64,000 nucleotides of DNA from a virus (IMGVR_UViG_3300027861_000016:1-64000), one strand, 5' to 3'; positions 11,201-18,100 are shown, numbered from the stretch's first letter. Numbers and translations: made by a program. The notes: a model not told the origin generated them from the sequence alone.

Positions 11201-14200
11201 GGTACTTCTGTATAAGTCATAATCATATCACCATAAGATTTAGGTAATACTCCTACTATTTCTAATGAATCAATAGATGAGAAACCTTGATTGGGAATAC
11301 GATAACCAATTAATCCTTCTAAGTTCTCTTTACCTATAACTTCTAATAGTTCTCTACCAGACATATTCTCATGTCCTGGAATACTCTTTAATATATTATG
11401 TGGTAAGAATACTTGTCCAGGAAGTGTAGCACTTTCATCTCCATCTTTCCCATTCCACCTTGGTCCTTTTAATTCAGGATCATTACTAAAGTATTTAATA
11501 CCATTTGGATCATTTAGATTCATTAAGTCAGTATCATCTAACTTTAATATCTTATTTAGATCATCCCTCTCTTGTTGTAATTTATCTATCTTCCCCTGTA
11601 CCTTTTCAATCCTATCTGTATTGTCTACTTTACCTTTAGATGTAAACTCTTTAAATCCTTGTATATCTTTTTTAGATCCTAACACATGTACTTGATCTGG
11701 GCTTTTTACAGCTATAAGTCCGGGACCGTCAAAGTATTCAATATGTTCTTTAAATGTATCTTTTACTAAATTACCTTTTGCTGAAGCAGCTTTCCAAAAA
11801 CTATCCTTCCCATCTTTTATAGGTTTTCCTGCTAACGCATTTTCTCTTTTTGTTTCTGGAACAAAATCTTTTACATTTAATATTGCAGAAATTACTTCCT
11901 CCCCGTAATCTAACGCACCTCCGGCGACAGCTTCAGGACTAGTAGTAAAAAATAAACCTTCAGCAATACCCCCTTCAACCTCTTCTTCTATCCATTTATT
12001 TTTATTTTCAAGATTGTCACTAAAACCAGAAGACATTATCTGATCTATATTCTCTTTAGTAGTCCCATGATAAACAATTTCTTGATGTTTACTCTCAGGA
12101 AATACAGTCTCTATGTATTTAGAATACTCCTCTTCACTCCCTATCTCTGCTAATTCAGGATTTTCTTTGAATACAGTCTGTACATCTTCTTTAACTTCAA
12201 CTGTTTCTTCTTGTTTAATCTCAGCCTCTTCAAATACTTTAGTACCTTTTACTCTTTTTATCTCAGCTAACATATTATCACTAAATCCTATATTAGTAGG
12301 AATAAGTCTACTTCCAAAAGCATTAGCTAGTTCATTTAGAGATTTCTTATTAGCATTTTTATCTGTATTATAAGGAACTATAAATCTCTTAGAAGGATTT
12401 TCTCTAGCAACATTATATAATTTTTCTATATTACTTCCTAGTTCTATATAATCTAAAGGTTGTCCAGGCTTTTCTACAGTTACTAACCCATATCCAGTAC
12501 CCTTGTTACCTTCCATTAGACCAGTCTTCCCTGCTATTGCAAAGTCACCTACTTTATTTGCTTTAGTGTCCGCCGGTAAGTTTATATCTTTCCAATTTTT
12601 ATAGTGTCTTGTATCATTTGTATAAGCTAATCCTGCTGTACCATACCCGTGAAAACCTCCTTTATTAGCACCAAAGACCATTACATCATTCTCATCAAAC
12701 ATTTCTTGAGATACATTTCCTGTAAAAGCAGGTTCAAGATTTGAATATTCTTGTTTAACTCCTTCTTGTTTAGTTGGTGTTTCCTGTGGTTTAGATAAGA
12801 CTTTTTCAATAATTATATCTTTTAATCTATCCTCAATTTGTTTTACTCTATCCTCTTGTTTTTTTCTAACATTTATAATTTCATTGAATTTTTTATTTAT
12901 TTCTGGCATTTTTGCAGCAGGGTGATCTTCTAAATAAGTATCTTTAAAATCCCAGATATTAAAAGGAGGACTATAATCAGGCATATCGTATAGTTTCTTC
13001 TTCTCCTCTTCATATATTTCATATTTATCTTTAACACCTTCAACTATACTTGTTGTATTTTCTTTGCCAATTATATCATTAAGTTCTAATGAGAAACCTG
13101 GTTTTTGTTTCCAAATGTCCAACTTCTTTTTTAATGATGGTAGGTCTTGTTTAATTGGTGTTTCTTGTACTTCTTTTATAGGTTTAGTTCCCTCTATTAT
13201 ATTAAAGTTTTTAGTAGGATTTGTATTTTTACTACTTACAATTAATGTATTATTTTTAGCTCTTGTAATAGCTGTATACATTGATTGCGACTTCTGTTTA
13301 TTACTAATAGGACCTACAGACATTATATCATCCTCCATAACAGCAACAGTGTTATAGGTAGAGCCTTGTGACTTATGAGAAGTAATAGCATACGCATAGT
13401 CTAAGTTGGCAAACATATTTTTAACTCTCCAAGCTTCTTCAAAGAGTTCACCTTTGTTTCGTCTATTGGGTTCCACTCTTGCCTTATTAAACAATGAAGA
13501 TACTAAAGCACCATGTTTAGCTTTAGATTTCGAATCTAACATTTCTACTCTTATAGGAGGGTTATCTGCTTCAGGACTTTCTACATAAAAAACAAACCCA
13601 GAAAAAGATTTATCTTGTACAGTAAATGTTGATTCTTCTACCTCTGAAGGTACTTGTATCTCATCTGAGTTATTAAATTCCTCATAAGAATCAGAAAACA
13701 TAAGTAATTCTCCTGGTTCTACTTCCTTTCCTCCTTTGAAGAGTTTAGAATGCATGTATTTATTTATGTCTTTTCTTGTTACATTCTTATATGCTACTAT
13801 TTTAGCTCTATTAGGTTCATAATTTTTTATAGCTAAAGCAAATTCACTTTCTAGTTTTTTAGCCATTGTTGTCGAATCTGTAAATACTAAATTACCTTCT
13901 TCATTTAATATTGATTCTCGGTTAGTACTATTTGGATCCAGTTCGGGATTAGTAGATTGTGTATTATCCCAATATAAGTCAGCAAAAGGTAATATAGGAC
14001 TTGCTTCTCCTTGTCTAATTCTAGTTAATAATTTGGTATTGTCTTTTGTATCAAATACTTTAGAATCCTTATTAGCCTCGTCACTATCCAGTTTTCTTAT
14101 AGGAGGTAATTGTCCTATATCTCCTAAGAATATTAAAGGTGTTCCTGACTGTTTTAACTGTTGAATGTTTTCTAAAGCTTCTTCATTAATCATTGACGCT

Positions 14201-15164: not shown

Positions 15165-18100
15165 TTATTCTCCACACTTATTATTATCTTCATCTAACAT
15201 TTGTATAAGTCCTGATGATAATGCTTTTGAAATATCTATATCTTCTTTAGACAATTGTTTCAGAGATTTCATACCAGCATTAGACATTTGAATGAATGCT
15301 CCGCCAGGCATCTTAAACTTAACAGTTGATTTAGTAATAGCTGCTAATAGTTTAGATTCTATTTTATCTCTAATTTGGAATATAGCATCTAATGGAATAT
15401 TATTCTCTAGAGCATAAATAGTATTTATAGATTCACTATCAGCAATTGCTTCTTCTAATAAACTATCATAGATTGGTTGAAGACTCTCTGGTACATTTAA
15501 TCTTCCATCTACATCTTGAGTTATTCCATATTGTTTAAGTAGTTTATTTCTTCCTATATCTGATAAAGCAGATTCAGTTTCTAATACTTGTCTTTGTATT
15601 TCTCTACCATCAACCATCTTACCATCTAAAGAATAAACATCTTCATCTAAAGCAATGTTAGCTAATATATTCTTCTTAACCTGTGAACCTGCTAATGATT
15701 CTCCTTTCTTATCATATTTAGATGGATTATCTACTTGTAGTTTCCAATTGAAGTTACTAAGAGTAATTGGTTTAAGATGTCCTTTAACAGTTTCTCCACT
15801 TGCTATAGATTCAAAAGAGGACTTCTCAGTAGCTCCTAACTTCATTGCAGATTCAAATAGTAATTCATCTACATTATCTACTTCCATTTGTTTAAGAACA
15901 TTCTCTAATTGAGTATCCTTAACTAATCTAGGATGTAATACTGCTTGAGAATACTTTAGGAATGATGGAATACCTCTACCATTCTCATCCTGTCTTACTT
16001 CAAAATGTGTTCCTTTCAATGCTTGAAGTTTAAGTATATTACTATAATCAACTTCTACATTAGGATCTAACATCTTTTGATAAGTAGCTTCATGTTCTGG
16101 AGTCCAGTTTCCTAATCCATTTTGTATCTCTCTAAATCTAGCTAAAGTAATATAACATTGAGCATCTCCTTGATTGATTTCTTCATAAGGTTTCAATTGT
16201 TCTTTAGCTTCTTTCTTAGCTTGTTTATCACTTAATTTAGGATTAGCTGCTTTCTTATCTTTAATAAGTTTAGCTAAGTTTCTATCATAGAACTCTTTAG
16301 CTGCTCCTGTCTTCAAATCATTTAGAACTGCAACATTATATGTACGTTTTACTCTCTCGCCATCAACTCTTAATTGTTGACCATCTGAACCTAAAGCTTG
16401 AATACGTTTAGAAACATCTGAATAGAATGCTGGATCACCTCCAAAGATAAACATAGTTTCTACATTAGCAGTCCAACCCATGAACCAATAGTCAGCTAAT
16501 AATTCATTCATGTTATTATGAATAGCAGCTTGAGATGTAAAGTTAGTCAATTCTTTATCTAATCCTTGTATTTTTCTACCTCTATCTATAAGAATACCTT
16601 CACCAGCTAAGAATGTTTTCTGTTCTTTTAATCTCTTTTCAACTAGTTCTTTCATGTAATTAACTAGTACTTCATTCTCTTGTAAGTCTTTAAGGTCAAG
16701 TAAATGAACCTTACCTTTCCCCATGTCACCATACAAGTCTAATTCATTAGCTAAATCAGTTCCATAAGATAAAGAACCAAAGAATGCTGATTTTAAATCA
16801 CCTCCATTTATCTCATCTTTAAATTTAGTAACATCTTTGCCATCCCTGTCTTTAACAACTTTAGTTCCAGAAGAAGCTACTGATACAATCCTTTCATATT
16901 CTCCATAGAAGTATTGAATCATCTGATCTGTTACAGTCTTTGTTATTTGATAACCTGTACCATCAAACTTAATACCTGATCTAAACTTAGCTGCTGGATC
17001 TTTTGATTGATCATTATATGTCAAATATCTAACTGTAGGTTTATCACCAAATGTTAGTATAGGAAAGTTAGCTGATAATGTAGCACCTATTCTTTCAACA
17101 ACATCATCTTGTGATACTAAGTTAGCAGATTTAGATCCACTGTCAGGTAGATTACCTCCTTCAACTTTATTTGTACTATGTGTAGTAATACTATAGTTCT
17201 CAATACCACGTCCTTTATTCTTACCCATGTCTTGTAACATGAAAGAATGTCTATGGAACATTTGGTTAACATGTTTTGTAAAAGCAGAATCACTTCTTTT
17301 CCACAATGCAAGTGTTTTATCCATTTGTGTATATTGACCTAAAGTAGAATACTTATTACCTTCTGGTCCTAATATCATACTATCACCTTGTACGTTAGAA
17401 CTATAACTAGCTATTCTAGATAAGGCTTGTATTAAATAACTTCCACCATTAACATCTCCTAAAGGATTCTTTCCATTATAATTCCAAGTAAATCCCTCTT
17501 CTAACATAGAAGATATAGAAATAGGTGTGTTCTTATTACCTAAGAATAGCTTACTCATTTCATACATTCCAGTTTTAATAGTTTTCTTCTTAGCTGTAAG
17601 CTCTAAGAAGTAATTCTCTATTTGTGGAATAGTTAAAGGAATACCTAAATCAGTAAATGCTTTAGATAGTACTTCAGAATCTTCTCTTCTAACTCTCTTT
17701 TCTTCACGCTTTACTGCTGCTTGTAATATAGGAGTTACTTCTTCTATAACTCTAGAGATTGTATTTAGTTTACTTGGTTTTGTATAAGCATCTTCTTCAG
17801 TTAGGAAACTCTCAGTAAAGTTAGTTGTCCATTCCTTTTCTATTATCTTTTCGGAACCTTGAGAAGAAGCATTTACAACCTTCAAATCTACATCACCATT
17901 CTCACTCATATAGCTAATGAAAGCACGATAGTCTACATTAGTTACACTAAAAGCATTTACAAACTGAGTTCTTTGGAATTCTTCAGCTCCTTTTAATCTT
18001 TTAAGTACTTCTGTTAAATAACTGTATTCGTCTATAGTAGCTTTTTCTTCTATAGCTTTATACATCTCAAGATATACATCTCCTTCGCTTACAATTCCTG

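Follow-up and report, generated by a model that had tools for sequence, protein, structure and literature searches.

We analysed a stretch of 64,000 nucleotides (nt) (IMGVR_UViG_3300027861_000016:1-64000, hereafter the window) forming part of an IMG/VR record of 95.9 kb that derives from an uncultured crAss-like phage of marine origin, in which a virion RNA polymerase (vRNAP) related to gp66 of phage phi14:2 appears to be divided between two genes. Three long open reading frames (ORFs), read in the standard code, succeed one another on the minus strand, namely, ORF1 (P0001 in our protein numbering; 3281 amino acids (aa); 15165..25010), ORF2 (P0002; 2282 aa; 8251..15099) and a downstream ORF of 1183 aa (4700..8251). 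ORF1 consists of a ~2000-aa N-terminal region, an HExxH segment and the N-terminal part of the RNA polymerase (RNAP N-part), and ORF2 of a payload followed by the C-terminal part (RNAP C-part).

ORF1 and ORF2 together match a single virion RNA polymerase

When the PDB was searched with these sequences, the single relevant entry was 6VR4, the gp66 virion RNAP of phi14:2. A phmmer comparison with this entry matched ORF1 residues 2103-3248 (E 5.7e-52) and ORF2 residues 1196-2051 (E 6.2e-56) in collinear order, and realignment against gp66 translated from NC_021806, from which we took the native gp66 numbering, placed the two segments at gp66 78-1247 and 1251-2025, respectively. The seam between the two blocks thus amounts to just 3 gp66 residues: the end of the ORF1 block, ...VKFKMPGGAFIQMSNAGMK (up to residue 3248), is aligned with gp66 1229-1247, and ORF2 from residue 1196 on (NDPNGIKYF...) with gp66 1251 onward. 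On the minus strand of the window, the RNAP N-part covers 15267..18704 and the RNAP C-part 8947..11514. The initial annotation had stated that the polymerase stops shortly after KMPGGAFIQMS and resumes in the next ORF after some 1200 aa, and we indeed located the first string at ORF1 3233-3243 (nt 15282-15314) and the starts of ELKGP, GQVFLPH, RIPNQG and DFDVD at ORF2 residues 1209, 1228, 1267 and 1306. A failure of the ORF1 C-terminus to align with the N-terminal half of the vRNAP had been named there as grounds for abandoning the proposal; the alignment to gp66 78-1247 is the opposite result.

We took the domain boundaries of gp66 from the preprint describing it, in which the Connector between the two barrels spans residues 1095-1238 and the catalytic DFDID residues 1361-1365 (10.1101/2020.03.07.982082). 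By these boundaries, the RNAP N-part should contain the cleft-blocking region, the first barrel, the Connector and the strand GGAFIQMS, and the RNAP C-part should contain the second barrel, the bridge helix and the trigger loop. The DFDVD of ORF2 (residues 1306-1310, nt 11170-11184) is aligned with the DFDID of gp66, and the metal-binding motif is intact. The break falls 9-13 residues past the end of the Connector (gp66 1238) and ~110 residues before the metal-binding motif, and therefore ORF1 probably keeps one short strand (GGAFIQMS), which may belong to the second barrel. The earlier description of a split between the barrels is accordingly right about the neighbourhood of the inter-barrel junction, but not about the exact point. 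Beyond the aligned region, ORF1 ends in a 33-aa tail (SLKQL...NNKCGE; 15168..15266, minus strand), in which Cys3279 is the third residue from the end.

The ORF break is not readily explained by a single error

As the initial annotation had it, the two ORFs are out of frame and are separated by a 65-nt gap containing a hairpin. This non-coding spacer (15100..15164, minus strand) has several stops in each of the three frames, and together with the different reading frames of ORF1 and ORF2 this means that no single insertion or deletion could fuse the two. Its hairpin of 12 pairs (15118..15144, minus strand), followed by TAATTTTAAA, a weak T-tract, gives the 101-nt stretch around it a minimum free energy of -20.4 kcal/mol (z = -3.1); it ranks first among the terminator-like sites of the 20 kb that were scanned and has no counterpart elsewhere in the window. 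The hairpin is possibly a partial terminator or an mRNA-stability element, and one might speculate that it sets the ratio of the ORF1 and ORF2 products. An Rfam search of the spacer returned only a chance snoRNA-like match. Two ORFs, their collinear homology to gp66 and the barrier to fusion by a single indel all agree with the earlier suggestion of a true two-subunit enzyme, the subunits of which would associate by analogy with other two-barrel polymerases.

An assembly artefact at the junction had been named as the other finding that would speak against the proposal. However, an independent Logan contig of 4775 nt, obtained from run X1 (possibly the source sample), covers 14400-15900 with zero differences, and parts of the junction region are also represented in short contigs of two other studies of seawater. 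A low-depth variant contig from run X1 aligns to the gap at 15130-15165 and to the ORF1 end at 15258-15335, with 82 other bases in place of the 92 nt (15166-15257) that encode the ORF1 tail; this contig lends weak support to a real spacer, and the ORF1 tail seems to evolve fast. We rejected the idea that the tail is a duplicated junction segment: a hidden Markov model (HMM) of 17 unsplit relatives aligns with its first 15 residues only, at a score of 3.1 that 6 of 300 shuffled sequences also reached, which is a weak linker match and not convincing. No match was returned when the 16.8-kb block was compared with GenBank phages by megablast, and no IMG/VR relatives were found with three fragments of the window or with P0057, P0138 and P0165 (P and L numbers denote proteins and genomic loci of the family survey below).

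An enzyme-rich payload precedes the C-terminal half

The block between the two polymerase parts, ORF2 residues 1-1195, is made up of enzyme-like domains, and the ~1150-aa enzyme payload announced in the initial annotation was sound in both size and character, the present figure being ~1195 aa with a helicase, a macro-like and an ART-PolyVal-like domain (ART, ADP-ribosyltransferase). A small beta-rich domain (residues 60-180; 14560..14922, minus strand) has matches to phrog_4412 and phrog_325; a segment of it is C-terminal in P0147, with a different sequence before it, and travels with the helicase module elsewhere. It is followed by a Dda/RecD-like helicase of superfamily 1B (SF1B; residues 183-621; 13237..14553, minus strand), which is well supported by Pfam AAA_30 (52.8 bits, cut-off 27) and UvrD_C_2 (31.9 bits, cut-off 27.4), by phrog_325 (1.9e-76) and by PDB 9KWF (1.2e-18), and in which all core motifs (Walker A with K216, Walker B, III, V and VI) are intact.

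A linker connects the helicase to a tentative macro-like domain (residues ~799-955; 12235..12705, minus strand), which is suggested by a low-confidence AlphaFold2 (AF2) fold. With this model, whose mean predicted local distance difference test score (pLDDT) is 61, Foldseek gave TARG1 and viral macro domains as top matches (E 6e-3, probability 0.98), and the VIA-align matches with Z>=5 were for the most part chains of macro domains or of the macro fold (Z 7-9). None of the 5 aligned members of this domain matched a Pfam family at E<=1, and a PDB profile search yielded nothing below E 3. The last domain (residues 980-1149; 11653..12162, minus strand) is ART-PolyVal-like, having homologues with E down to 1e-16, many of which carry PF18760. 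The segment itself did not match PF18760 at E<=5 and gave sub-threshold matches to Tpt1 and PARP only, and its homologue P0155 scored 31.5 bits against PF18760 (cut-off 31.2), with others slightly under the cut-off. An H-Y-D triad forms the active site of ART-PolyVal domains (Iyer et al. 2017, PMC5512222). The window's domain and its homologues all have the His of YHGT, and the aligned Tyr and acidic positions hold F and L here and vary among the homologues too. The AF2 model of this domain (mean pLDDT 53.7) was too poor for fold search or active-site mapping. With helicase, macro-like, ART-like and polymerase modules in one chain, ORF2 agrees with the definition of a polyvalent protein; the HExxH of ORF1 is a motif-level assignment.

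The payload was initially described as bracketed by two similar heptad helices that could form an antiparallel stalk. Helix A (residues 34-55; 14935..15000, minus strand) has three clean heptads, with I36, I39, I43, L46, L50 and L53 at the a/d positions, and helix B (residues 1160-1185; 11545..11622, minus strand) is a linker helix directly before the RNAP C-part, predicted by AF2 as a 26-residue helix with block-mean pLDDT ~71-92, in which the string quoted in the initial annotation corresponds to residues 1162-1185 (11545-11616); an analogous helix occupies its place in the sister protein P0003. The heptad hydrophobics are thus present in both helices as described. However, their similarity (Smith-Waterman score 49) is lower than the score of 54 given by an unrelated helix, ORF1 566-600, which indicates that the resemblance reflects the generic composition of charged helices. 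If the two nevertheless paired as an antiparallel coiled coil, they would project the payload and return the ORF2 N-terminus to the junction, where Cys4 would have to approach the ORF1 C-terminus if a disulfide forms between them. We consider this improbable: each helix is only 3-3.5 heptads long, and the beta-domain adjoining helix A is the one found C-terminally, after a different sequence, in P0147. Moreover, with the chain interrupted upstream of helix A, the payload is an N-terminal extension whose ends need not meet, and the proposed stalk is therefore not upheld.

The seam is used repeatedly in the family

We searched with the ORF2 C-part using HMMER, found 1769 relatives at E<=0.001, and mapped the best 149 cluster representatives onto the parts of the window. 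Both halves lie in one chain in 134 of the 149 (~90%), with a median linker excess of 6 aa, and in 128 of these 134 the excess is <=36 aa. The statement that the vRNAP is a single polypeptide thus holds for phi14:2 and for ~90% of the representatives, but not for the public split forms with ends at the seam and at about residue 250 of the C-part. Six of the 149 carry inserts of 128-196 aa exactly at the seam, one of which, in P0027, is DUF7831 (E 2e-34), and the five of them that were placed on the tree represent five independent changes. Six other representatives (P0057, P0079, P0120, P0132, P0138 and P0140) begin within ~60 aa of the seam, variously just before or just after the GGxFIQ strand; four of them (P0057, P0079, P0132 and P0138) have no match to the RNAP N-part and two (P0120 and P0140) match its last strand only. 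Together with the ORF2 row of L037, these seam-starting proteins account for at least five changes on the tree. The genomic context of L037 reveals a clean split, in which ORF1 ends in ...KVHCK and ORF2 starts with MSINC. The recurrence of inserts and splits in several lineages argues that the seam is a recurrently used permissive site; as judged from these sequence comparisons, a large payload at this site is confined to the small clade of the window.

That clade contains the sister protein P0003, which groups with the window at support 100 and is 47-50% identical to it over the kept columns. P0003 carries a different payload of at least 1150 aa, consisting of ART-PolyVal, helicase, an HExxH module and a helix, directly before its C-part. 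Among the 149 representatives, only the window and P0003 have a large payload directly before the second barrel. At least 45 other proteins combine the vRNAP with a helicase homologous to that of ORF2. In the 38 other giant helicase-bearing proteins that we retrieved with the ORF2 N-terminus, the helicase lies between the halves in none (0/38), inside the C-part in one, and after the RNAP C-part in nearly all. Hence, the earlier view of the split point as a permissive site for co-delivering effector enzymes is supported by the recurrent inserts and splits, but the seam is not the usual place for a payload, and the helicase may be an accessory of the polymerase instead of an effector. A helicase at the seam in cr118_1 and cr50_1, as read from tblastn, was rejected after blastp placed the module C-terminal to a contiguous RNAP. 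We also discarded a link between splitting and helicase insertion, as P0079, P0057 and P0138 appear to be split and have no helicase.

Several further observations concern other positions in the family. P0186 and P0192-P0201 (one cluster of which has 106 members, on contigs of crAss size) start some 250 residues into the C-part, downstream of the DFDxD barrel, which points to a second common split site there. Helicase, ART-like or macro-like modules are inserted elsewhere in the polymerase in P0005, P0013, P0132, P0140, P0150 and P0180, and the ART-like and macro-like modules of other representatives are found within either polymerase part or at the C-terminus. One other insert site is at C-part residues ~386-400, aligned next to the trigger-loop region of gp66, and P0106 has an insert within the RNAP N-part. 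Two loci with the same domain layout and almost identical ORF coordinates, L020 and L021 (Ga0070754_10000784 and Ga0208898_1000908), differ in that the RNAP ORF is continuous (4205 aa) in one and broken ~110 nt apart within the C-part in the other. Precomputed Pfam assignments list PF25176 (DUF7831), PF08719 and PF08902 for P0182, P0183 and P0186-P0201, and PF13532 for P0172 and P0173. We take PF08719 to be the NADAR domain and PF13532 to be a 2OG-Fe(II) oxygenase, in which case modules acting on ADP-ribose and on DNA modification travel with the giant proteins of the vRNAP block.

Neighbouring gene and HExxH segment

The downstream 1183-aa ORF (4700..8251, minus strand) is a homologue of phi14:2 gp65 residues 348-1400 (E 1.6e-72), which places the polymerase genes in the cargo/transcription block beside a gp65 homologue; phmmer detected no match to gp67. 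In phi14:2 the HExxH sits in gp65; the window's homologue is without the HExxH region of gp65, and its sole cysteine is at position 4. In ORF1 a zincin-type HExxH motif, HEAWH (residues 2026-2030; 18921..18935, minus strand), lies just upstream of the RNAP N-part. The segment around it has 52 BLAST matches (E<=1e-3) among the 149 representatives, and in the 25 rows inspected these lie just N-terminal of the RNAP N-part.

Cysteines mark the protein ends

Cysteine is rare in this family, with a frequency of 0.07% across the 149 representatives and a median of 2 per protein (~2700 aa), and it is concentrated at the termini: 126 of the 149 have a Cys among their final 6 residues, and in 82 one is present among the initial 8. 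The two ORFs of the window follow the same pattern, with cysteines at residues 2952 and 3279 of ORF1 and only at residues 4 (within the initial MAKCNPVY...) and 2282 (the last residue) of ORF2; the terminal Cys codons are at 15174-15176 (ORF1 3279), 15088-15090 (ORF2 4), 8254-8256 (ORF2 2282) and 8240-8242 (residue 4 of the next ORF), all on the minus strand. The same pattern is seen at the new termini of the split lineage comprising L037, P0079 and P0132. That ends created by a split obey the cysteine rule of the family argues that they are real, selected protein ends.

Weighing of the alternatives

We consider it probable, on the evidence given above, that the window encodes a genuine two-gene form of the crAss-type (phi14:2 gp66-like) two-barrel virion RNAP, with a payload delivered as cargo. 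A rather unlikely alternative is that the cargo block is the equivalent of a polyprotein cut by zincin-type peptidase modules, the mature polymerase being formed from fragments in split and unsplit phages alike; payload domains would then be released from the RNAP C-part, and the stop-plus-start in the window would be one more boundary. Cleavage of giant fused polyproteins has been proposed in the gp66 preprint (10.1101/2020.03.07.982082), as has the processing of polyvalent proteins by metallopeptidase (MPTase) domains (Iyer et al. 2017, PMC5512222), and a recurrent HExxH segment directly upstream of the RNAP N-part in ORF1, an HExxH motif (residues 965-969) between the helicase and the C-part of P0003, and gene boundaries that differ widely across the family are what such processing would lead one to expect. 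However, the vRNAP of N4 likewise has an MPTase and enters the virion without being processed, no cleavage sites are known, the HExxH assignments are made at the level of a motif, and the terminal-cysteine rule follows the ORF ends, suggesting that these are the ends of functional proteins.

In our judgement, it is highly improbable that the break was introduced during assembly or sequencing, or that it reflects a defective genome recently inactivated by mutation. The record is indeed metagenome-derived, with a CheckV completeness of 65%, the split of L015 resembles a frameshift, and L020 and L021 differ by a single ORF break. Nevertheless, the spacer combines multiple stops per frame with a structured hairpin, it is followed by a proper ATG, the new termini bear the cysteine signature of the family, an independent contig is identical across the junction, and all catalytic motifs are intact over 5563 aa of open frame. 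It is even harder to believe that the ORFs are joined in expression, whether through translational bypassing of the T4 gene 60 type, through removal of a small intron or through splicing of the two proteins in trans. The stop codon, hairpin and short coding gap superficially resemble the 50-nt gap of T4 gene 60, but the hairpin begins 21 nt past the stop and not at the take-off codon, and there is no GAA or GGA landing codon near the start of ORF2. Likewise, a group I or II intron would not fit into 65 nt and none was detected with Rfam, and the 33-aa tail has no initial Cys and the N-terminal region of ORF2 is a helicase with no intein blocks.

Returning to the two-gene form of the enzyme, we note several points that weigh against it or against its parts. 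Our searches did not yield a close relative (>70% identity) whose junction is complete, although a relative at 74% identity lies behind P0165, and the contigs of P0003 (L018 and L019; samples Ga0172381 and Ga0172382) end inside the gene, before its N-terminus, which bears on whether the break is conserved in the sister lineage. Four of the other splits (P0057, P0079, P0120 and P0138) appear, from protein matches, to be candidates, and the L015 split, seen in genomic context, has the geometry of a simple frameshift and may be a sequencing error. The association of the ORF1 and ORF2 halves is argued by analogy, and the role of the helicase as an accessory of the polymerase likewise goes beyond the domain assignments. 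With F and L at the positions taken as the catalytic Tyr and acidic residue, the ART-like domain may be inactive, and the macro-like fold comes from a model with a mean pLDDT of 61. A disulfide tether between ORF1 Cys3279 and ORF2 Cys4 in the virion is speculative, being read from the position of the residues.

Comparison with known systems

The window shares with phi14:2 a homology over nearly the whole length of gp66, the DxDxD motif, a gp65 homologue downstream and a setting in marine Bacteroidota phages (Crassvirales). However, gp66 is a single 2180-aa chain without helicase, macro-like or ART-like modules, whereas the chain in the window is cut at gp66 1247/1251 with ~1230 aa added at the cut, and its N-part is preceded in the same chain by an additional region of ~2000 aa. 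RNAP ORFs are variable and fragmented in crAss-like phages (Yutin et al. 2021, PMC7886860), and the Zeta group described there likewise illustrates how RNAP gene boundaries vary between related phages. In that group, however, many stops and frameshifts occur, even in DxDxD, and recoding or an unknown mode of expression is suspected, while the window has one clean break with a spacer. Splitting and domain insertion are common in this family, but the layout seen here is rare; we found no description of this particular layout in the literature, although its ingredients are known.

In cellular RNAPs, beta and beta' contribute one barrel each, and splits and fusions of these subunits are familiar from plastid and cyanobacterial rpoC1/rpoC2, archaeal A'/A'' and Helicobacter rpoB-rpoC. 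The likeness to the window lies in an active site at the interface of barrels on separate polypeptides, and in splits that fall in variable, insertion-prone regions. In contrast to the cellular enzymes, the split in the window is derived within a single-chain family, nested among unsplit relatives on the tree, and the break probably leaves a strand of the second-barrel region on the first subunit. N4-type virion RNAPs occur as fusions with a zincin peptidase, an ART and further domains (Iyer et al. 2017, PMC5512222), and these polyvalent proteins resemble the window in that a virion-delivered polymerase shares its chain with enzyme domains, including an ART-PolyVal-type domain and an HExxH module, and in that module order varies, here between the window and its sister lineage. 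However, the N4-like polymerase is T7-like and unrelated to the two-barrel type of the window, and its modules lie at the end of the polymerase, whereas those of the window lie between the halves and include an SF1 helicase and a macro-like domain.

Proposed mechanism and implications

In the mechanism that we propose, the products of ORF1 and ORF2 would be made late, packaged as cargo and ejected, and the two halves would reassemble non-covalently in the host, with the active site at the interface of the barrels as in beta/beta'. ORF1 would supply the first barrel, the Connector and the one following strand, and ORF2 the DFDVD, the bridge helix and the trigger loop, with the break falling in the short variable linker between the halves. 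The ~1195-aa polyvalent-type N-terminal extension of ORF2 would be delivered together with the catalytic half. Within it, the tethered helicase would assist the polymerase by opening the template or by translocation. Single-stranded DNA (ssDNA) is transcribed by gp66 and double-stranded DNA (dsDNA) is not, and QDE-1, a eukaryotic relative of gp66, requires the QDE-3 helicase (10.1101/2020.03.07.982082); because of these two properties, and because the helicase fusion recurs in dozens of lineages, an accessory role is the most likely one. The system of Neurospora QDE-1 with QDE-3 and RPA similarly places a two-barrel, ssDNA-preferring polymerase alongside a DNA helicase; there, however, the helicase is separate and of RecQ type, while that of the window is of SF1B type and covalent to the catalytic half, with the coupling itself being presumed. 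For the macro-like and ART-like pair, a candidate role is the modification of ADP-ribosylation, which might serve host takeover or counter-defence in the conflict between host and phage.

We can go a step further and imagine the split polymerase as a helicase-coupled motor that opens dsDNA, its pieces being disulfide-chained head to tail, although we regard this extension as unlikely. If it were true, ORF1 Cys3279-ORF2 Cys4 and ORF2 Cys2282-Cys4 of the next protein would re-link the cargo as a pseudo-polyprotein in the virion, and this disulfide chain would thread the tail in order and separate in the reducing cytoplasm. The built-in SF1B helicase and the ssDNA-only polymerase would then be the phage counterpart of QDE-1 with QDE-3. 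Independently of this scenario, the near-absence of cysteine except at the protein ends in the 149 representatives is a strong and simple signal on the organisation of crassvirus cargo.

To our knowledge, polymerases of the gp66 type are the only single-chain two-barrel DNA-dependent RNAPs known from phages. They are also the proposed ancestors of the eukaryotic RNA interference polymerases. A natural cut near the barrel junction in several lineages suggests that the fused and heterodimeric states interconvert easily, and it offers a natural test of barrel complementation. The map of permissive sites, comprising the junction, the region after DFDxD and the site near the trigger-loop-aligned region, may be useful for structural and engineering work. 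Finally, the fusion of a helicase in dozens of lineages makes it a testable question how an ssDNA-specific enzyme transcribes a dsDNA genome just after injection.

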